The translations under genes were made by a program, and so were the position numbers. A stretch of 64,000 nt of DNA, from the NCBI GenBank assembly GCA_046563655.1, contig CM102286.1, forward strand, positions 14,570,001 to 14,634,000, written 5' to 3'. Position 1 is the stretch's first letter. Each line of letters begins with the position of its first letter. This document shows, piece after piece, positions 6,428 through 58,074 of the stretch. Under the pieces are notes generated by a model. The model saw only the letters and a list, made by a program, of their open reading frames with translations. It did not search any database and was not told the origin of the DNA. The stretch is from Yuukianura sp. NJ FZ-2021. Its lineage: Eukaryota.

Positions 6428-8689
6428 TTATGCCCTCCAACGAACGACAACTTTGTCACCATCTTCAACAGAGTACTGCGATAGATCGTAGTGGTCATTG
6501 TCCAAGGGAAATGTGATTCCAGCATTCTGAAAAATAGGTCGTTTCAAAATTTTGAAAATAATTTCGAAAAAAAGTTGCTCAAAATACCTGTGAACTTATA
6601 ATGCCAAGATATGCAATTGGACCAGATCGTTTGAAGAGTCGTTGAATAAACATTTTCAACTTCTGGACTGTCATGTTCGGCATGATTTTTTTGGAACAAG
6701 GTTTCAAACTAGAGTTTTCTGGAACAAACTGTAGAGCTATAAAAAAGGAACATCAAAATTCAAAAATTGAAATTCGAAAATCAATTTCACTTTGGAAAAC
6801 TTTCATTTTTTGGAACTCACTAATCAGCGTAGACTGGAAAGTTTTTGGAACGTTCGACAATTCTTTTTCAGGTTCTCCAAATTCTGCAACTCACAAGAAC
6901 AAAAAAGTTCAAAGAAAATGTTTTTCGTTTTTGAAAAAAACATTTTTCGCTTGAAATTTTGAAAACATGTTACTTGTGATGAGTTCAACGTAACGCGGAT
7001 GTTCAGCAGCAAATCGTAACTCTGTTCCTTCAGTTCTCCATTTACTACTAAACTTTTTCATGTAATCAATTTCAGAATCGCGTCTCTCTTGCCGAGTAAC
7101 TTCTATGCCTTCCAATTTCTAAAAAAATTCAACAAATTTTGAACAAAAAATTCGGTGATGAGAATTGTTAAAAGTTACATTTAGTTTTGCCATTCGCGCT
7201 ATGATCATTTGCCGATTGTTTTCCTTTGAGTCGTTTGCAAAAACAGGATTTAGTTCAATCCTTAGTTCAGTTAGAGCTTGAAGTTTGCTTAGTTCTGTGA
7301 TTGATATCCACTGAAATGAAAAAATATATTAGAGATTGTTAAATTGTGATTAAGAGTTTAACTAGAACAAAATTCAATACTTACATCTTCAATTGCGTTT
7401 TGGCTAATGTTGAGTCTCTTCAGATTCAAAAAGAAGCGCGTGACCTGACAATTCTTAGGGTCATCGGGGTTCACGGGAAATCGAACATTTGTGATTTTGT
7501 TACCGCATAGGTTCAAATACTCCAACCTAAAAACAGTCTGATATTTATTGGACAGAAAGTACTGGCAGAAAGTTTACTTGAAGCAGCATGTTTGCCGTTA
7601 CTTACTTGTGACAAACATTCAATTTGATAACTTCTTCCCAGTTACAGATTTGATTGGATTCTAAATCTAAACTTGTGAGATGCAAAAGTGATGCTGTTGG
7701 TACTGCCAGTGTTGAGATAATATTGAACGGAACCTGCAAGTATATTTGAACTTCGAATAAGTAAGTCTTTCCGGAACGATGAACTCGCAACTTACCTGTA
7801 AATTAGTTATGTGTGGCCAAAGTATCGAAGTGGTCAGAACATCAGTCCAAGTGTACTTGACATTTCCAAGCACAACGTGCTCCAAGTGGGGAAATGGAAT
7901 TTGACTCTTCTTCATTTCACAGAATGGACCAATCGGATTCCCACTGTAACAATTGAGAAATGTGTAAAAATTTTAGAAATAATTTTGAAAAAAATTTTGA
8001 AAACGTTTTGTCATTTGTTACCTTACATCGATGCCTTTCAAAAGTTCAAATGACTCACAAACTGCTGAAAGAGTGTCCCAATCTTTGACGTAATTCTCGG
8101 CCAGGTTTAAAAATTCAACTTTCGGACACTTTTTGGACAATTCTCCGGGTTTCCCCAGGTCAAAGATACTTCGACCAGCCAAATCCAGAACCTGCAATTC
8201 ACTAATAAAAACACCAATTACCGAAAAATTTCAATTCATATAAATTAATTGAGCAATTGAGCTTACTTACTCATAATGGACCCGACGAGGAGTAATTGCT
8301 TCATCCAGCAGTTTCAATTTACTCATAACTCTCTCATCATATCCATATCGCTCTTCCAGGGCTCTGAATATCGTTTTCAGCAGTGTAGCCTTATGTGGAC
8401 GGATGAATGAAGCAGCATTTGGTGTCGTACTGCGGAAGTACTCAATGTCGCCAACAGTTCCGCTGTGCTTGCCACGACTTGGATCGTCCCATTCAATACC
8501 CAACCAAATCCCAGCATGCGGCTTAACATCTCCAATGTACTTGACTATTCCAGAATACTTGTCAGACCGAATCCTGTCACCAATTTGGTAGTCGATAGTT
8601 TCTTCACTTTTTATCAAATCCTGTGAAATTGATTCGCAAGTGACCGTTCCATTCTGATCTTCCTCTTCGTCAATAAGAAATTGAAACAT
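6428..8689 (-). CDS. TBCE: Tubulin-specific chaperone E (CAP-Gly, LRR and ubiquitin-like domains)
   Basis: CAP-Gly motif WLGIEWDDPSRGKHSG...ASFIRP, leucine-rich repeat exons, ERRDSEIDYMK...HPRY, and a C-terminal UBL ending DGDKVVVRWRA*. Stop at 6428-6430. Confidence 0.9.
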
Positions 8690-8774
8690 GATCTACAATG
8701 CTAATAGAAAAAACAGTTCTTATGACATGACATGACACATTCATGACAAAGACGCATGTCACGGGGTCAAATGA

Positions 8775-8788
8775 GTCGCCATGACAAC
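8775..8788. promoter_or_regulatory. RFX X-box in the divergent TBCE / B9D2-Tectonic promoter
   Basis: GTCGCCATGACAAC matches the X-box consensus. It lies upstream of two transition-zone genes, and a 5' donor GTAAGC follows near 8919. Confidence 0.7.
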
Positions 8789-9225
8789 CAATTTCAGAAA
8801 CAAAACGAAAGTTAGAATCAATAAAGTCATGCACATTTCTTGTTCTCACCGAATTCGGTTTTTCCGTGGACTTTGTCAGGACTGGCAGCTATACTTCCAG
8901 AACCACCGTCTTAAGTTTGGTAAGCGATTAATCGATTAATTTAAACTTAATCAAAGTGTTGACACAAGTAATTGATGAATACAGCTCGTCTGAATGTGTA
9001 AATGACATCATCAGCTGTTCAAATGTCAACTCTTTCTCTTCCCGCGTGAACAGAGTGAAACGCTACGCTAACTTTTAGAAAACACTACTAAAGTAATATT
9101 TGCATATATTTCTATTTATATTATATATTCATTGTTTATTATATATTATATGCAATTTATTTGGCTTTTTAAGAACTGTTTTACTAATTGATGGAGTTTG
9201 GGAAGAGCGGGAGCTTTGAATTTTC

Positions 9226-9994
9226 ATGGCGGAGTTGCATGTGATTGGACGGATTCAGAGTGGCACTGGTTTCGAACAAGATACTGGCTACTTTTGCAAG
9301 TGGACTATTCAAGCAGGTAATTAATTACCAATTAACTAATTAATTGCAAAGTTAATTAACTTTTTACCTTAATTTGTTGCCATCTTGTATCAGGAAGTGG
9401 TTGGAAGAAAGTGGGCGGAGTTAAACAAGGACAGACTCAAGTAGATACGCCATCTATTGTAGATTCTGAAGTTAGAGCTCATTGGTCACATCCAATTGAC
9501 ATCCATTTTGCTGCAAGTGGACTCCAGGGTAATTAATTGATACAAATCAATTAACTTTTGTGATTTTGATTGACTTTTTAACATTAGGTTGGCCTAAACT
9601 GGTCCTGGAAGTGTGTCGTCAAGACAAGTACGGCAGAAGTGACCTCAGCGGGTACGGAATCTGTCACATTCCAGCGTCTCCGGGTACCCACATCATCCAA
9701 GTTCCTACGTGGCGCCCTGCAGGTATTTTTTGAATTTTGAGAACATTTCATGCAGTTTTTGAAAAACGTTTTTGAATTACTGGGAAATTTTTAGACAGTG
9801 TTTTTCATTTTTCAGGGTCAACTCGAGATCAGCTTGAGCGACATTTCCTGGGTGGCGCAGCAGAGTTAAGTGAAACCGACTTTGTTTCGAATACTTCCGA
9901 ACGATACCGACTGCGAACGACACCGTCCGGTACAGTAACGCTCGAGCTTGGAATCATCCTCAAAAACTTTGCCAAATTCCACATCGACACATAA
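9226..9994 (+). CDS. B9D2: B9 domain-containing protein 2 (MKS transition-zone complex), 4 coding exons
   Basis: Not in the ORF track. Spliced translation: [10 protein letters not shown]...FCKW...GQTQVDTP...[20 protein letters not shown]...[13 protein letters not shown]...TWRP...FLGG...RYRLRT...[14 protein letters not shown] at 9226, TAA at 9992-9994. Confidence 0.92.
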
Positions 9995-10003
9995 AATTCA
10001 AAA

Positions 10004-12383
10004 ATGCCCGGGATTCGGTTCACAGCGATTCAAATTCTTTTCGCCATTTTTGTGTATCAAGTTTGTTCGGAATCTACCGAACCAACCTCAATCAGCTCAA
10101 GTTCAGAACCGCCAATGGTCAACAGTAGTACTACAGAAGCGACAATCGCTGAAACTACGTTGGTCGTAAACACAACTATTAGTGCAATTGAAAACAATTC
10201 TACTGCAAACGAATCAACAACAACTAGTTCTACAACTACTTCACCTACAGTTTCTCCTCCGCCAATCACAGAAGGGACTGGCCCTTCTATATTTTGTCCT
10301 TGTGACCATGCTGTAAGTTTTTTTTTAGATTCTTTTTCAATACCTTGACTTGACCTTTGACCTTTGCAGCTCAATACTTGTGAGGTCAACTGCTGTTGTG
10401 ACCCAGACTGTCCAGATAAGTTGCTGAAAACGTTTTGGCCATGCGCAGATGAAGATGCTTTTCGGAAGTACCACGCAGCTCGAGATTCACGTCGCTGCTA
10501 CCGCAGAGATTTTCTGTACCGAAACAACACGATTTACAAATCTGAAATTTCACAAAACGGACTTTTTTGCATAGTCAACCAAAATTTGAAAAAGGAGCAA
10601 CAATTTCCAACTGCAAAAGTAACAAAAAAATGAACAAAAAAGTGTGAAAAAGAGTTTCATTTTGGAAAAAACGGCCAAAACAAGTTTAAAATTTTGTATA
10701 TTTTTCAGCTCAACCTCGCAAGGATTTCGAAATACACGAAATCAAAATTTTCATGGCGGATGATGGACGCTGATAAAAAATTTCCGCAACAACCAGCAAA
10801 AACACATTACAAATATGGACACCAAATTCAAATTGCAAAACGTGTTCTGAATTCAACCGACTCCGATTCGGAAAATTACGTCCGAATTGGAATGAGTACG
10901 ACCACTTTTTCAAAAACTCAAAAAAAAATTATTTTTTTTTTCAAAAATTCAATTTTTTTTGTGTTACTTTCAGCACTGCCTGCCCCAGCATTTGGTCCGA
11001 AATGTATTGCCAAGTCACCGGTCAACTTTTTGAAAAATGAAGAGTTTTCGTGTCCATTCCAAATTTTAAATCTCACCGATCAATGCCAAACTTCAGAAAT
11101 GCTGGATGCTGCTACCTTCATGTCACGTGACTCTTTCATCATTTCAAATCCAAGTGCGGGATTATCCGAACCAAATTTGGTCAACTTGACCTACAGCTTC
11201 TGTCCTACTAAAAATAGCGGTTGCTACGAAACCAAAATTTTGAGGTCACCATTCTACAATTTCGAAACTTCGTCATGTGACAACGTCCTGACTCAAATGG
11301 ACTTGATTTTCAAACATGCCGGGACAGAAGGACTCAAGCACGTCACGGCAGAAATTCACTATGCAAATTTTACTCTGGCGCGAACAAAAACGATTTTGCA
11401 AAAATTTAGCGTCAGTTTCGCCTGGGACGATCCCACTGAAGATCACATTCATCTCCACCCTCCTCGCTTAATCAGTGGAAACCCGGGCTATATCATTGGA
11501 AAACCAGTCATTGTGGGGTCAAAGGTCAAGGTCAATGACCTTGACCTCGTCCAGAACAAAGGTCAAGTACCAAAAGTTGTGCTGGACAGCATCCAGCACG
11601 GGGAACTCATAATCCGACCACCCACTAAACCTCTGACAGTGCTGAATCCTCCGAAATGCGGCCAAGGGCCCAGGAGACCCTTGACATTCGGATTTGACCT
11701 CAAGGTCACTTGTGCTCTGGACTACGGTGACCTCGGGACATGTCAAAATCTGACTTCTGCTGTCGAAACTACTCTTTTTGGAATGTCCGCTGAAAAATTT
11801 ACGTCGAGGTATTCCTGTTTTGAATTCTTGTGTTTTTAGTTTTTTCGAATTTAGAAATTTTTAGAAATTTTGAAAAAAAAAAGTTTTTTCTGATTTTTTT
11901 TGTTGTGTCAGGTACGTTTCTGCACTGGGCGATCCGCATTTGATGCGCAGTGATGACTGGGTGCACTGGACAACTTCTGAAAATCCATTCAAGTCGCTGA
12001 TTGGTTCTCCGAAGTCGATAGACTCCGGATGTCATGGATTGGTCACTTCGATGCATCTTCACTTCTTGTATGCCCATGTCGGATCAGTACACTTTCCACA
12101 ACTGAAAATACTGGCAGCATTTATTCAATACGGCAGCACAATTTCAATTCCTCCAAGGAATGTTAATTCCAGCGAATCAGCGATTACCATAACGACTACT
12201 GCCGAGTTCACTGACGTAACTCCGCCTCCTGTCACGCCCATTCCGAAGTGGCCAATCATCTCCATCCGTCTTCCGCAGGACTTTTTCTATCCATTTTCTA
12301 TCGCTACTTCTGCAGGGTCAAGGTCAACGTCACTCTATAGTCTTAGTGTCGTCATAATTTTCAAAGTTAAACAACTTTTCTAA
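10004..12383 (+). CDS. TCTN: Tectonic (MKS transition-zone complex)
   Basis: Signal peptide, a Thr-rich linker, CPCD...CEVNCCCDPDC, SGNPGYIIGKP, and C-terminal LPQDFFYPF followed by a hydrophobic tail. Confidence 0.92.
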
Positions 12384-13323
12384 AAAATAGTTTCAAAAAA
12401 GTTAGAATTTCAAAGCTAGTTAAAAATTAGTTAAAACTTGGTACAATAATAAATTAAAAAATAAAAACTCCTGCGTTGGTTTTGGAAAGCAAAAAGAGGA
12501 TTTTTATTCATTTTTTTATATTTTGGGTTTTGAAATAAATGTGAAATAAAATTTTGAAGCTTTTTTAAGTAGTATATGGCCACACAGTGTAAATTTTAAA
12601 ATACTGTCAGTAGATTTTGTGAACAAAAATTGGAACAACATTAATCCAGCTCATTGCAACTTAATCCGTTAGTAAGCATTTTTCAGTCTAACATTAAATC
12701 TAATTAATTACAATTAACCAGTGTTAATTAACATGCTTTTTAACTATACTTTTGGAATAAACTTTTAACTGTCCATTTTAGACTAAAGCTGTACAGTTTT
12801 TTTGGAACACCGAGCTGCCAACAAGGTCAAAGACGAGGTCACGAGGTCCCTACGTCCAACATACCTAGTCTTAACAAGTCCATTAACTTAACATGGGTTA
12901 ATTAACACCTAACAAGTTCCTAATTAACACCTACTTCTTAAGTTAATTAACATTTAAGTCAATTAAACTAACATTTTGTCGATTAACGTAGTTAGTAGTT
13001 TCTACAAAAAATCTAGACACAAGACTCGTATTTTGTTAACAACTCCACAGAAATACTAAAAGTGGTTTCATTTTTTTCTTAAATTTAACACGAAGTTATT
13101 ATTAGTTTATACATTTTTATTTTAAATTTTCAATTTTGGATGAATCAAAAAACTAAAATTGTTTTTTAAATGTTAACGTTCGATTTATGGAAAAACAAAG
13201 TTTTTTAACTTTTAACTTTTTAGTGTTTTGAAAAGAGGGGGAAAGGAAAGTGGGGGATGTTTTTTTTTTTCGTTTTTTGTGACTTTTTTGATTTGAAATT
13301 TTTGAAATGCTGAACATTTTTGA

Positions 13324-45500: not shown

Positions 45501-48073
45501 GGGGTGACGGCGAAGGGTCTCACTTTGCCCCGAAATTTTAAACTTACGTGACACAAACTGGTCGTTTTGGTCATCTTTGTTAGCAAAAGAGAAAAGAAGA
45601 GAGAAAATTTTTTAAAGAAACTTTTTAGAGAAATATTTAGCGGAAAAGTTAGAGTTGTGCGAATGCAGTTAGTTTTTGATGGTTAGAGTTATGCACATTG
45701 ACTTTTTAAAGATATGCGCATGAGCAGTACTTACTTCTTGCGTTTTTCGTTTGATGATGACGGAATGCCATTGGTTATCATTGAATTTGAGGTTGTTGGG
45801 TCCAATGAGTGTTTCGAGTGGTCCATTGCCCAAGTTGATTGAGATTGTGAGGTGACCAGCGACTAAGTAAATTGAAATGTAGTCGACGTTGTCGCCAGCG
45901 TAGAAAATGAGGCCATTCCCGAGCCTTGTTTTGAACAAAAGTTCAACTTCGTCTTGGGCAGAAATCAGGCCTTGGTTCAACTTTAAGTAAATGTAGGACT
46001 TGGAGTTGAAGTGGGCTGAGGCTGGCGGTTTCTCTAAAAAGTTTTCAAAAAAGTTTAAAGTTTTCTTTTTGAAATTTTGAAAAGTTTTAAAATTTTGAAC
46101 TATGGAAATGTCACCTCGCTCGCAGACGACTCCCTCGTAGTCAATGAGGCTGCAGTCACAGAGTGGACCGTTGTCAGTGGAGATGCAGTAGCCACCGTGG
46201 AGACACGGATCGTAGCGGTCACAGGAACTGTGCGGTGGGTTGCTAAGAAGGCCCTGAAATTTTGAAAAATTTCGAAATTTAAAACACCCGCATTTTTTAA
46301 AACAAATAAAATGTTAAACTCGTTTCTCTTAAAAAATGGTAGCGTTTTAACTCTGACAGAAACTGGAGTGAAATGTTTCCTGCACTTTCTTCGGAAAAAT
46401 AAAATTTTGGCTTTTCGAATGAAAAAATGTGAATTTTTTTTTTGAAAAATCAAATTTCAAAGTCAACCGCCCCGTGCAGTATTGATAACAGTAATTAAAA
46501 TATTGGCTTTCCCATGCGGAGTAATTGATCTGTTGAAAGAGACATTTTGTTCCAAAAATTTTGAAAAGGCTGAACATGAGCATATTTGTTCCACGAAAAT
46601 AAAATTTTGAAAACACGACAGGAATTTGGCAAGTAACTGAAAAGACGAATCAATTTCTTGGCATCGTTCCTTCACTTTTCAGGTTTTACGTTTTAAAAAT
46701 GAGCTCTTAAATTTTGTTTGAAAAGACAAGAAACAGCAAGTTGAACAGAAAGAGAAAATGTAGTTTTTTGAAAACTCAAAATTTGGCACCAAAACAACAG
46801 GAGATGAAAGCGACTTTTTATTCAAAGTGGAAACTCATGTCGTGGGACACTTAATCTTTTTTAAGCCTTTTCCACTTTTTCGGGTTTTTAAAAAACCGAA
46901 AATGTATTATTGACACACAAGGGTCCAAATTATTAAGGCTTTTACTGAAGCCACCGTTGGGAGGAAAAAACAAACAATTTTTGTTTTTAAAAATATTTTT
47001 TTATCAAAACAGGACATAAATCATTGCCAATTTTCATCTGCTCACGAAAATACCGTAATTCCTTGCATATACCACACTGCAAGAAATGCTTTTCAAAATA
47101 TTTCAACATTACAAAACATTCTGTGATACGGGGAAATTTTCTGAAATGAGAATGAACGCCTATGTTATTTTAGAGACTTTACGGTACTATTAAAAATATT
47201 TTTTTAAATATTATTAAATGTTTTTTTTATAAAATATTATTTAAAAAACACGATTGTGTACAACAGTCAGAAATGAAATCGAAAATATTTTGGTAGAGTA
47301 AGCGCCCATGGAATTTGCCAGAATTTACGGTACTTTTTATTTAAAAAAAATACGCACCACTATTTAAAGCATACGACAGTAACGAAAAATGAAATCAATT
47401 TTTTTTAAGAATAGCCGCCCGTGCTATATTCGAGACTTTACGGTACTTTTTATAAAAATAGCCCAATGATGTAGAACAGTACCTTCCACTCAATGACAGT
47501 GACACTTCTGCCTCCATATCCAATGTTTCTGATCCCTCCAGCATATTTCGGTTCGAAGACGACACTCGGTAGAGCCAGTTCGTCCAGTCGACTGTTCCAG
47601 ATATTCGGTAGTCCTCCGACATACACTTTCTCAAAGTACAGGTCACTCAGGTCACTGTCACTCCTGCTCACTCCCACGAATCCATCCACAATCAGTTTAG
47701 TGTTGTAAGTGGTTTTGTTAATTTGGACTCTGTGCCACAGTGCGTTGTTAAGGTGTGAGCCCACTGTGAGAACTTTCGTCCCAGAACCAATGTTGTACCT
47801 CAATCTGAGTGTGGAATCCACCAACTTCAGTTCGTAAAAGTAATTGTCAGCATCAGTGTACAAAATTAGTCCACTCGGAGATGTCGTAGAGAATTCCAGA
47901 GTGAGGGGACTGTTGCTAGGCGACCACGGGGGGTAGAGAGCATAGGAGTCCGGTGACCCAGACAACAACAACGAACAGTCTACTGAAGTCAGCAACCCTA
48001 GTATAGCCAAGGTCAGCACTCCAAGCACTGCTGACCTTTGACCTTTGACCTCTGACCTCCCGTTGACCTCCAT
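39542..48073 (-). CDS. Nrx-1: Alpha-neurexin (LNS/laminin G and EGF repeats, TM, PDZ-binding motif)
   Basis: Signal peptide then LNS1 with LALPSVVFEP, EGF repeats (PCLHGG.CISTDNGP.CDC; PCVNGKCIDGWNRYICDCS), further LNS exons, a Cys-loop CPIDEDDC, a Pro/Thr stalk, one TM segment and the C-terminus KEWYV*. Confidence 0.92.
43785..44190. repeat. Degenerate ~30-bp tandem repeat filling a neurexin intron
   Basis: Repeated aaaattgtccggggaaaaattt / aaagttgtacagggag units. Confidence 0.65.
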
Positions 48074-57954: not shown

Positions 57955-58074
57955 ATGCCAAGAGCACCCGGGGTTCCCAGGCGGTCACCCATCCAAGTAC
58001 TAACCGGGCCCGACGTTGCTTAACTTCAGTGATCGGACGAGAACTGGTGCTTTCAACGTGGTATGGACCTTGGC
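57955..58074 (-). rRNA. 5S: 5S ribosomal RNA, single dispersed copy
   Basis: Reverse complement GCCAAGGTCCATACCACGTTGAAAGCACC...GTACTTGGATGGGTGACCGCCTGGGAAC...CTTGGCAT is 120 nt long and is followed by an oligo-T Pol III terminator. Confidence 0.97.

Follow-up and report, generated by a model that had tools for sequence, protein, structure and literature searches.

In a 64,000-nucleotide stretch of the Yuukianura sp. genome (hereafter, the window), the neighboring genes for B9D2 and Tectonic probably form a single transcription unit that gives rise to a dicistronic mRNA on which ribosomes would reach Tectonic by leaky scanning. To judge from sequence and from published records, this unit would be the orthologue of the dicistron that CG42730 (B9d2) and tectonic make up in Drosophila. 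The two coding sequences are separated by a few bases that hold neither a canonical poly(A) signal nor a splice acceptor, the upstream cistron is nearly devoid of ATG triplets, and Drosophila and Hymenoptera show the same gene order.

Gene models and protein identities

An exhaustive GT/AG search yielded a B9D2 model of four exons (179 aa) and a Tectonic model of five exons (683 aa), which together delimit the interval from the B9D2 ATG at 9226 to the end of the Tectonic stop codon at 12383:

9226–9316, plus strand: B9D2 exon 1, with the ATG at 9226–9228 in the context attttcATGG (T at −3)
9394–9528, plus strand: B9D2 exon 2, from the GT/AG model and Pfam
9588–9722, plus strand: B9D2 exon 3, from the GT/AG model and Pfam
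9816–9994, plus strand: B9D2 exon 4, with the stop codon TAA at 9992–9994 followed by A
9995–10003, plus strand: 9-nt spacer AATTCAAAA, without AG, ATG or poly(A) hexamer
10004–10312, plus strand: Tectonic exon 1, with the ATG at 10004–10006 in the context tcaaaaATGC (A at −3)
10370–10618, plus strand: Tectonic exon 2, encoding the Cys-rich DUF1619_N
10709–10895, plus strand: Tectonic exon 3, aligning with the Tectonic parts of Hymenoptera proteins
10974–11808, plus strand: Tectonic exon 4, encoding TCTN_DUF1619
11912–12383, plus strand: Tectonic exon 5, with a hydrophobic C-terminal tail and the stop codon TAA at 12381–12383

The first-pass annotation had described a 9-nt spacer with both genes in the same frame and no room for a poly(A) signal or promoter in between, and direct reading of the plus strand together with the gene models bears this out. 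As the B9D2 stop codon and the Tectonic start codon lie 12 nt apart (10004 − 9992), the two ORFs share a frame—by chance a one-in-three event and unremarkable alone. What goes beyond chance is the adjacency, gene order and tiny spacer, since these are seen again in other arthropods. The two coding sequences do not overlap, lie on one strand and leave no space in which a terminator or promoter could fit, as expected of a candidate dicistronic gene in the FlyBase sense (gene_with_dicistronic_mRNA), a class that also calls for a processed mRNA with both coding sequences.

All four B9D2 exon pieces matched the Pfam family PF07162 (B9-C2), covering in exon order positions 1–27, 30–72, 74–116, and 120–166 of its 166, and hence a single B9-C2 domain fills the model, whose length falls in the range of a B9D2 protein (~175–180 aa). 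The protein matches database sequences from fish, rotifer and ant named ‘B9 domain-containing protein 2’—the fish protein with an E-value of 2e-60 over residues 1–178—and by this comparison with B9D2-named sequences it is a putative B9D2 rather than a B9D1 or MKS1. A 115-aa relative of exon 2 (P0173; 77% identical) supports the exon 1/2 boundary. In the Tectonic model, two of the five pieces matched Pfam families (exon 2, PF25752 DUF1619_N; exon 4, PF07773 TCTN_DUF1619), while exons 1, 3 and 5 gave no Pfam match at E ≤ 0.1. Residues 1 to about 22 form a hydrophobic signal peptide, with the most hydrophobic 11-mers starting at residues 6–12, and the model thus combines the signal peptide, Cys-rich DUF1619_N and TCTN_DUF1619 of a Tectonic. 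It has 147 relatives at E ≤ 1e-3, the best for exon 4 being a protein of 471 aa (P0001). The gene models and Pfam matches support the identities first assigned to both proteins, and the literature confirms their membership in the MKS module of the ciliary transition zone (PMC5087661, PMC5037411).

Signals for transcription and processing

The canonical hexamers AATAAA and ATTAAA are absent from the plus strand between 8820 and 12448, a stretch that spans the whole B9D2–Tectonic unit and is the longest plus-strand gap between such hexamers in the window; 5.8 would be expected in 9000–12447. The first signals past the unit begin 65 nt downstream of the Tectonic stop codon, and it is from here on that the common transcript would end:

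12448–12465, plus strand: first canonical poly(A) signals past the unit (AATAAA at 12448 and 12460, ATTAAA at 12453)

At 9990–9995, the B9D2 stop codon is overlapped by CATAAA, a variant hexamer through which B9D2 might conceivably acquire a 3′ end of its own. Two mRNAs might then be made, with B9D2 polyadenylated right after its stop, Tectonic transcribed from a promoter inside B9D2, and the tight packing reflecting genome compaction. The window is indeed gene-dense, and 45 of 159 dicistronic loci in Drosophila have monocistronic forms for both genes as well (PMC4528330). We nevertheless regard two mRNAs as improbable given the lack of a canonical poly(A) signal throughout the unit and the listing of the Drosophila orthologues with dicistronic transcripts only (PMC4528330). 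Moreover, the fused Hymenoptera models described below would be a natural outcome of continuous transcript coverage, and separate mRNAs would leave the ATG-poor B9D2 cistron unexplained. In Yuukianura sp., both ORFs are probably carried by one mRNA.

Same-strand, functionally related genes with a tiny spacer also look like an operon, whose polycistronic precursor would be trans-spliced ahead of Tectonic into two capped mRNAs, and trans-splicing does occur in some crustacean groups. The first-pass annotation had named a trans-splice site at the spacer as a counter-argument to its proposal. We checked for such a site and found no AG in the 58 nt that precede the Tectonic ATG (the last AG lies at 9945) and no pyrimidine tract in the spacer. 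Spliced-leader operons, including those of nematodes, resemble the window pair in joining co-transcribed, functionally related neighbors, but they produce two mature mRNAs, for which the upstream gene has a poly(A) signal and the downstream one a 3′ acceptor just ahead of it; the window pair has neither the acceptor nor a canonical poly(A) signal in its upstream gene and would yield one mRNA. An Rfam scan of the window returned no spliced-leader RNA (the one match was a 5S rRNA), and the Drosophila orthologue is listed as a processed dicistronic mRNA (PMC4528330), so that trans-splicing of the pair appears scarcely credible. A repeat search of 8600–12900 found nothing touching the B9D2–Tectonic junction.

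The unit is preceded by a 536-nt gap that separates B9D2 from a divergent TBCE-like gene (minus strand, ATG at 8689), and transcription would start in this shared promoter region upstream of 9226. The gap contains one notable motif:

8775–8788, unstranded: X-box-like putative RFX site GTCGCCATGACAAC, in the gap between the TBCE-like gene and B9D2

The strict X-box pattern GTHNYYATRRNAAC has three matches at two sites in the 64 kb, against 0.40 expected, and two of 100 shuffles reached three. The reverse complement of the site also fits the restricted Drosophila consensus (PMC2375033), but this consensus is looser than the strict pattern, occurs across the window at about chance level (6+7+1 matches versus ~9.4 expected) and is thus uninformative here. 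In Drosophila, CG9227/tectonic is an in vivo dRFX target (PMC2375033), and it is for this fly gene that dependence on RFX is established. The RFX control proposed in the first-pass annotation thus gains a strict X-box and a fly precedent, yet the site is nearer to the ATG of the divergent neighbor (86 nt) than to that of B9D2 (438 nt), which makes its assignment to B9D2 tentative. RFX acting through the X-box at 8775 would probably drive the B9D2–Tectonic unit. We do not claim a 5′ non-coding exon at ~8789–8919 (donor 8920, acceptor ~9176), which was picked out by GC content (0.40 versus 0.29) and by eye only.

ATG scarcity and the route to Tectonic

In the spliced mRNA, the 549 nt from the B9D2 start to the Tectonic start contain one ATG in any frame:

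9239–9244, plus strand: sole internal ATG, out of frame and directly followed by TGA (an ATG-TGA mini-ORF)

Base composition predicts 8.9 ATGs for an interval of this length, and shuffling the codon order of the B9D2 interval left 5.5 ± 1.9 (P = 0.0098). The Tectonic coding sequence, by comparison, carries 15.6 ATGs per kb; windows of 549 nt within the Tectonic and P450 coding sequences never held fewer than five, and across the whole 64 kb, windows with one or none made up 0.8% on the plus and 0.36% on the minus strand. When the protein was held fixed and synonymous codons were resampled, 2.96 ± 1.3 out-of-frame ATGs were obtained versus the one observed (P = 0.13), arguing that the depletion is mainly due to missing Met codons and the amino-acid sequence. 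Internal Met is missing from the B9D2 of the window, but the B9D2 proteins of fish and Hymenoptera retain it at an aligned position. Met is scarce in B9D2 proteins generally, with zero to two internal residues in the fused models and fish.

The start codons differ as well: B9D2 has T at −3, in contrast to A in all three other starts examined (Tectonic, TBCE-like, and P450), although G at +4 raises the B9D2 context from very weak to intermediate. The pair hence combines an ATG-poor upstream cistron with a poorer first-AUG context, the sequence features of leaky scanning of the stoned/Snapin type. Some ribosomes would recognize the B9D2 AUG and synthesize cytosolic B9D2, and those that skip it would find no usable AUG along the 549 nt and would initiate at the Tectonic AUG, giving a secreted or membrane Tectonic. 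Upstream of B9D2, the plus strand has ATGs at 8829, 8975, 8994, 9002, 9023, 9150, and 9191, some of which may sit in the leader.

The first-pass annotation had offered re-initiation or leaky scanning as routes to the second protein; the ATG-poor B9D2 cistron favors the latter, and re-initiation becomes the less favored half of that proposal. On a single dicistronic mRNA, ribosomes terminating at the TAA at 9992 could also restart 9 nt downstream. The very short spacer suits such a restart, but the efficiency of reinitiation declines after long ORFs, and B9D2 counts 179 codons; TGGGA, the type of motif used by viral termination–reinitiation elements, is absent from 9850–10003; and the scarce ATGs and weaker start context of B9D2 would serve no purpose. 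We therefore hold reinitiation to be unlikely, even if File S1 of PMC4528330 lists many exclusively dicistronic Drosophila pairs with 1–20-nt spacers or overlaps and this mechanism, too, would accommodate an upstream ORF devoid of ATG (PMC11892635). Based on its sequence features, Tectonic would be fed by leaky scanning instead.

As a kind of element, the insect-type leaky-scanning dicistron is already known. Wall et al. (2005) reportedly described leaky scanning in Drosophila stoned and Snapin. In stoned (stnA/stnB) and CG9960/Snapin, leaky scanning is associated with an AUG-poor upstream ORF and a weak start context (PMC11892635), and the window pair shares with them the nearly AUG-free upstream cistron, the sub-optimal first start and the short spacer (18 nt in Snapin); the proteins, however, are unrelated, and a mechanism that was reporter-tested there is proposed from sequence here. 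Green-algal bicistronic nuclear genes likewise show a weak ORF 1 start and AUG depletion before ORF 2 (PMC7896298, PMC11892635), along with short inter-ORF spacers and leaky scanning (PMC11892635), but they belong to a different kingdom and are unrelated genes.

Drosophila and Hymenoptera counterparts

The Drosophila genes tectonic (FBgn0261697, CG42731) and CG42730 (B9d2, FBgn0261683) were formerly one gene, CG9227. A supplementary table of FlyBase annotations gives them one shared extent with the remarks ‘all di/polycistronic’ and ‘2 nt bet. stop/start’ (Crosby et al. 2015, PMC4528330 File S1, rows 21–22), which bears out the statement of the first-pass annotation that the fly pair is adjacent and annotated as dicistronic. 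B9d2::GFP and tectonic::GFP were cloned with a common upstream (forward) primer (PMC5037411), implying the order B9d2 to tectonic. The fly and window loci thus agree in proteins, order, shared strand and a spacer of a few bases, and differ in that the fly spacer is 2 nt and out of frame whereas that of the window is 9 nt and in frame. The fly locus, for which only dicistronic transcripts are annotated, is under RFX control. It is backed by transcript evidence, whereas the window pair is known from its DNA sequence. In the sources consulted, the fly dicistron is recorded only as the row in the FlyBase supplement and, by one paper, as an ‘overlap in the genome’, and our literature search found no paper discussing it, its conservation or its translation.

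The comparison across arthropods rests on protein models and papers. Among 147 Tectonic representatives, a single one (P0112) also carries B9D2, and the fused models were found through it, so their list is biased to Hymenoptera and silent on other orders. Among 26 long proteins that begin like B9D2, 23 contain Tectonic domains as well, and 22 of these come from named Hymenoptera species; the window B9D2 matches all 26 and the window Tectonic 23 of the 26. The Hymenoptera models measure 542–874 aa and are named tectonic-3, tectonic-1-like or B9 domain-containing protein 2. The 101 arthropod proteins grouped in one Atlas cluster all (100%) carry B9-C2, and 97% of them carry DUF1619_N. The predicted transcripts of the Hymenoptera models each place B9D2 immediately before Tectonic, the order seen in the window; unlike in the window, where TAA intervenes, the two are modeled as one ORF. 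Among the 20 of the 23 fused models listed, eight run without a stop from a complete B9D2 through 2–10 residues to Met and a hydrophobic signal peptide, such that a single B9D2–Tectonic ORF seems to exist elsewhere. In the others, the genes are joined across a predicted intron that leaves out the signal peptide and the last part of B9D2; a splice in the window from B9D2 exon 3 to Tectonic exon 2 would not preserve the frame (phases 1 and 0). The fused models suggest that the linkage is old and sometimes takes the form of one ORF.

This bears on a further proposal of the first-pass annotation, namely that readthrough of the in-frame TAA would give a B9D2–Tectonic fusion, with the signal peptide as an internal membrane anchor, the B9 domain cytosolic and the Tectonic domain outside. 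The shared frame and the in-frame Hymenoptera models speak for it, and the topology would be coherent. Yet TAA followed by A, the B9D2 stop context, is an efficient terminator, and a shared frame has a one-in-three chance. The Hymenoptera models, moreover, are computer predictions known as proteins alone, and the 2-nt fly spacer puts tectonic out of frame with B9d2 (PMC4528330), indicating that relative frame is not conserved. Having found neither a leaky stop context nor a conserved in-frame extension, the marks of programmed readthrough, we consider the fusion very unlikely here, although a counterpart does exist in the fused Hymenoptera models.

More tentatively, and with a small chance of being right, the pair may be an ancient arthropod unit in which one mRNA, from B9D2 to Tectonic, encodes a cytosolic and an extracellular gate subunit and which in Hymenoptera became a true single ORF with a signal-anchor. 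The former signal peptide would then anchor the protein so that its B9 domain and its Tectonic domain sit at one spot on opposite sides of the membrane, inside and outside respectively, and in the window such a product might come from occasional readthrough of the in-frame TAA. If true, the fusion would act as a natural ‘Rosetta stone’, implying that B9D2 and Tectonic face each other across the transition-zone membrane.

The dicistronic unit favored above is a known but uncommon gene arrangement, of which the window pair, by its sequence, is most likely a further example that shares one mRNA. The same order and near-zero spacer in a distant arthropod, the ATG-poor cistron and about a hundred merged arthropod models point to B9D2–Tectonic adjacency as a preserved arrangement and not an accident of packing. 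For genome annotation, a ‘tectonic-3’ model that includes a B9 domain probably combines two separate proteins; otherwise it represents a fusion that merits testing. For cilium biology, the dicistronic arrangement may set the ratio of B9D2 to Tectonic, and it would offer a simple natural handle on how the amounts of MKS-module subunits are set.

The B9D2–Tectonic junction

Gene models were built by trying all GT/AG pairs near visible boundaries and keeping the open-frame combinations. This left eight junction combinations for B9D2 and six for Tectonic, from which we chose those with the best-looking splice sites and the closest fit to relatives:

9226–9316, 9394–9528, 9588–9722, 9816–9994, + strand: B9D2, four exons, 179 aa (GT/AG modelling)
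9992–9994, + strand: B9D2 stop codon TAA (read directly)
9995–10003, + strand: spacer AATTCAAAA (read directly)
10004–10006, + strand: Tectonic ATG, twelve bases from the TAA
10004–10312, 10370–10618, 10709–10895, 10974–11808, 11912–12383, + strand: Tectonic, five exons, 683 aa (GT/AG modelling)

The B9D2 model is fixed, since all four exon pieces match the Pfam profile PF07162 (B9-C2; positions 1–27, 30–72, 74–116 and 120–166 of 166). Among the five Tectonic exon pieces searched against Pfam, exon 2 matched PF25752 and exon 4 PF07773, while the other three gave no match at E ≤ 0.1. The first part of Tectonic forms a hydrophobic signal peptide, and a second Met comes only after this peptide; the ATG at 10004 is therefore the sole start yielding a secreted protein. 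Beneath the two genes, the minus strand holds no ORF longer than 92 aa.

Direct reading of 9992–10006 bore out the 9-nt spacer described in the first-pass annotation and, because TAA and ATG are offset by twelve bases, the common frame; the observation itself is confirmed. The stretch between 9946 and the Tectonic start is free of AG, which rules out a new 5′ end made at the spacer by either cis- or trans-splicing, and the trans-splice site that would have spoken against the pair is not there. A spliced-leader operon was rejected on both the acceptor and the poly(A) test.

AATAAA and ATTAAA are absent from the + strand between 8820 and 12448, the longest gap among the 107 such hexamers on this strand of the window. 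About 5.8 were expected in 9000–12447, and the first poly(A) signals lie 65 nt past the Tectonic stop. The claim that no poly(A) signal separates the genes thus holds for the canonical hexamers but not for the weak variant CATAAA, which overlaps the B9D2 stop and is a caveat to the single-transcript evidence. Production of the two proteins from separate mRNAs would depend on this weak hexamer plus an unseen internal promoter, and would run contrary to the fly annotation; we consider it quite improbable.

Repeated sequence was also seen at the locus. Introns 1 and 2 of B9D2 share the opening GTAATTAATT and are rich in TAATTA/CAATTAAC (at 9317–9345 and 9529–9560), with a similar motif cluster downstream of Tectonic (12694–12717). 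An exact 15-nt repeat links the B9D2 start codon region (9219–9233) to Tectonic exon 3 (10746–10760), probably by chance.

Promoter region and surrounding features

The following features bear on the promoter region and on the rest of the window:

8775–8788: strict X-box GTHNYYATRRNAAC (pattern search of the window)
about 6500–8689, − strand: TBCE-like gene (CAP-Gly PF01302, E = 7e-21)
57956–58074, − strand: single, complete 5S rRNA gene (Rfam RF00001, 108 bits)

The strict X-box pattern matched three times, at two sites in the window; 0.40 matches were expected, and three were reached in 2 of 100 shuffles. In reverse complement, the 8775–8788 site also matches the restricted fly consensus (14 occurrences in the window, about 9.4 expected); it lies 86 nt from the TBCE-like ATG and 438 nt from that of B9D2. 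GC content is 0.40 in 8789–8919 versus 0.29 in 8920–9176, hinting at a conceivable non-coding first exon from a shared promoter. The strict X-box and the fly homologue favour the proposed RFX-driven unit; the X-box is nearer the divergent neighbour, however, and the loose consensus is not rare. Homology makes RFX control likely, and the sequence is compatible with it.

The TBCE-like gene is head-to-head with B9D2, the 536-nt promoter region with its X-box being common to both. Judged by eye, its exons after CAP-Gly encode a leucine-rich-repeat-like part and a ubiquitin-like end, the layout of tubulin-folding cofactor E. The second strict X-box (2218–2231), a perfect palindrome, lies upstream of + strand exons at about 3.9–6.1 kb; in their translations, also read by eye, there is something like an EF-hand, and the catalytic core of a PPP-type phosphatase.

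Elsewhere, the 5S rRNA gene, the only match in an Rfam scan of the whole window, stands by itself, flanked by a galactosyltransferase-like ORF and a P450 gene. In the protein Atlas, a P450 gene of the window falls among clusters from arthropods. AGGTCA/TGACCT was counted 135 times in the 64 kb (27 expected) and is the commonest hexamer of its composition (median 23), frequently as palindromes or as direct repeats spaced by 0–1 nt, coding exons included (11523–11547, 10351–10364, 48032–48059; AGGTCA-A-TGACCT in Tectonic exon 4, 11529–11541). The motif resembles nuclear-receptor half-sites.

Translation of Tectonic

The 549 spliced nt separating the two starts contain a single ATG in any frame (9239), followed immediately by TGA. 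Codon-order shuffles of this stretch gave 5.5 ± 1.9 ATGs (P = 0.0098), and base composition predicts 8.9. At most one ATG was found in 0.8% (+ strand) and 0.36% (− strand) of 549-nt windows across the 64 kb; such windows of Tectonic and P450 coding sequence never held fewer than five, and the Tectonic CDS carries 15.6 per kb. The depletion signal is weaker than these figures suggest: synonymous resampling with the B9D2 protein fixed expects 2.96 ± 1.3 (P = 0.13), and B9D2 is generally Met-poor, with 0–2 internal Met in each of 26 long models compared. The window protein has none, carrying Ser where fish and Hymenoptera have Met.

At −3, the B9D2 ATG has T (with G at +4) and the Tectonic ATG has A, as do two further confident starts examined. 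Wall et al. (2005) reportedly described leaky scanning in Drosophila stoned and Snapin. A later paper treats it as shown for both, and the ATG-poor upstream cistron and first-start context seen here are features reported there for these genes (PMC11892635).

Between the two routes first proposed, leaky scanning is thus favoured by ATG scarcity and start contexts, and the pair is most likely of this type. Termination–reinitiation on the dicistronic mRNA would agree with the short spacer but is at odds with the long upstream ORF as well as with both of these features, and we hold it to be improbable. Short spacers are frequent among exclusive fly dicistrons in File S1 of PMC4528330 (Snapin, 18 nt).

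Should the B9D2 leader extend to 9191, an upstream ATG there (+ strand, T at −3) opens a 17-codon ORF that runs across the B9D2 start in a different frame and terminates with TGA 9242–9244, the stop also used by the lone internal ATG. Such a uORF would allow part of the ribosomes to skip the B9D2 start.

Conservation in Hymenoptera and flies

Tectonic exon 4, used as query in a full HMMER scan, matched 147 proteins (E ≤ 1e-3; the best 43% identical), one of which, P0112, also contains B9D2. With the B9D2 part of P0112 as query, 26 of 138 candidate proteins of 419–1336 aa matched; 23 combine B9-C2 and DUF1619 domains, and in the other three (fish, rotifer and an ENA entry) the sequence fused to B9D2 is unrelated. 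Window B9D2 matches all 26 and window Tectonic the 23 fused models. Of these, 22 come from named Hymenoptera (sawfly, chalcids, braconids, vespid, ants, bees), a status verified in taxonomy for two of the names. Fourteen of the 23 have a complete B9D2 part, with the alignment reaching residue 172 or beyond (of 179).

Junctions were viewed in 20 fused models (P0166–P0168 omitted). Eight, comprising six bee genera, one of them represented by two species, plus a chalcid-like entry, run from the B9D2 C-terminus through 2–10 residues straight to a Met and hydrophobic signal peptide; in the others a predicted intron omits the B9D2 end and signal peptide. An Atlas cluster of 101 arthropod proteins has B9-C2 in 100%, DUF1619_N in 97% and TCTN_DUF1619 in 76%. 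These predictions show that, in species across Hymenoptera, B9D2 sits immediately ahead of Tectonic on a single predicted transcript; a real single ORF is a possibility in some. The closest B9D2 relative found, P0173 (115 aa, 77% identical over exon 2), reads through the counterpart of window intron 1 and is a mis-prediction in the database record.

As first noted, both proteins are subunits of the ciliary transition-zone MKS module, according to PMC5087661 and PMC5037411. The first-pass statement that the Drosophila genes are adjacent and dicistronic is borne out by the File S1 entry of Crosby et al. 2015, which gives tectonic (FBgn0261697) and CG42730 (FBgn0261683) one extent on 2L, "all di/polycistronic", "unrelated" proteins and "2 nt bet. 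stop/start", with no reference (PMC4528330). In the cloning by Vieillard et al., B9d2::GFP (primers F-3/R-4) and tectonic::GFP (F-3/R-5) share F-3, placing B9d2 upstream of tectonic behind the same driving DNA (PMC5037411). For Laurençon et al. 2007, CG9227 (tectonic) is one of the genes whose restricted X-box is conserved; they report its reporter as down-regulated in vivo in dRfx mutants and count it among fly B9-domain genes, implying that one gene model then covered both ORFs (PMC2375033). Our literature search found no paper joining B9d2, tectonic and dicistronic, and none that discusses the arrangement, whether it is conserved, or a fusion.

The fly spacer of 2 nt is out of frame, whereas the 9-nt spacer here is in frame (PMC4528330). 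The fusion by readthrough of the B9D2 stop, raised in the first-pass annotation, is unlikely: the frame is not kept, and TAA followed by A is unlikely to be read through.

The locus is the orthologue of the dicistronic pair already annotated in FlyBase, and the dicistronic interpretation is supported. It adds to the record that the pair is conserved beyond flies, that its upstream cistron is poor in ATG, and that Hymenoptera have models fusing the two.
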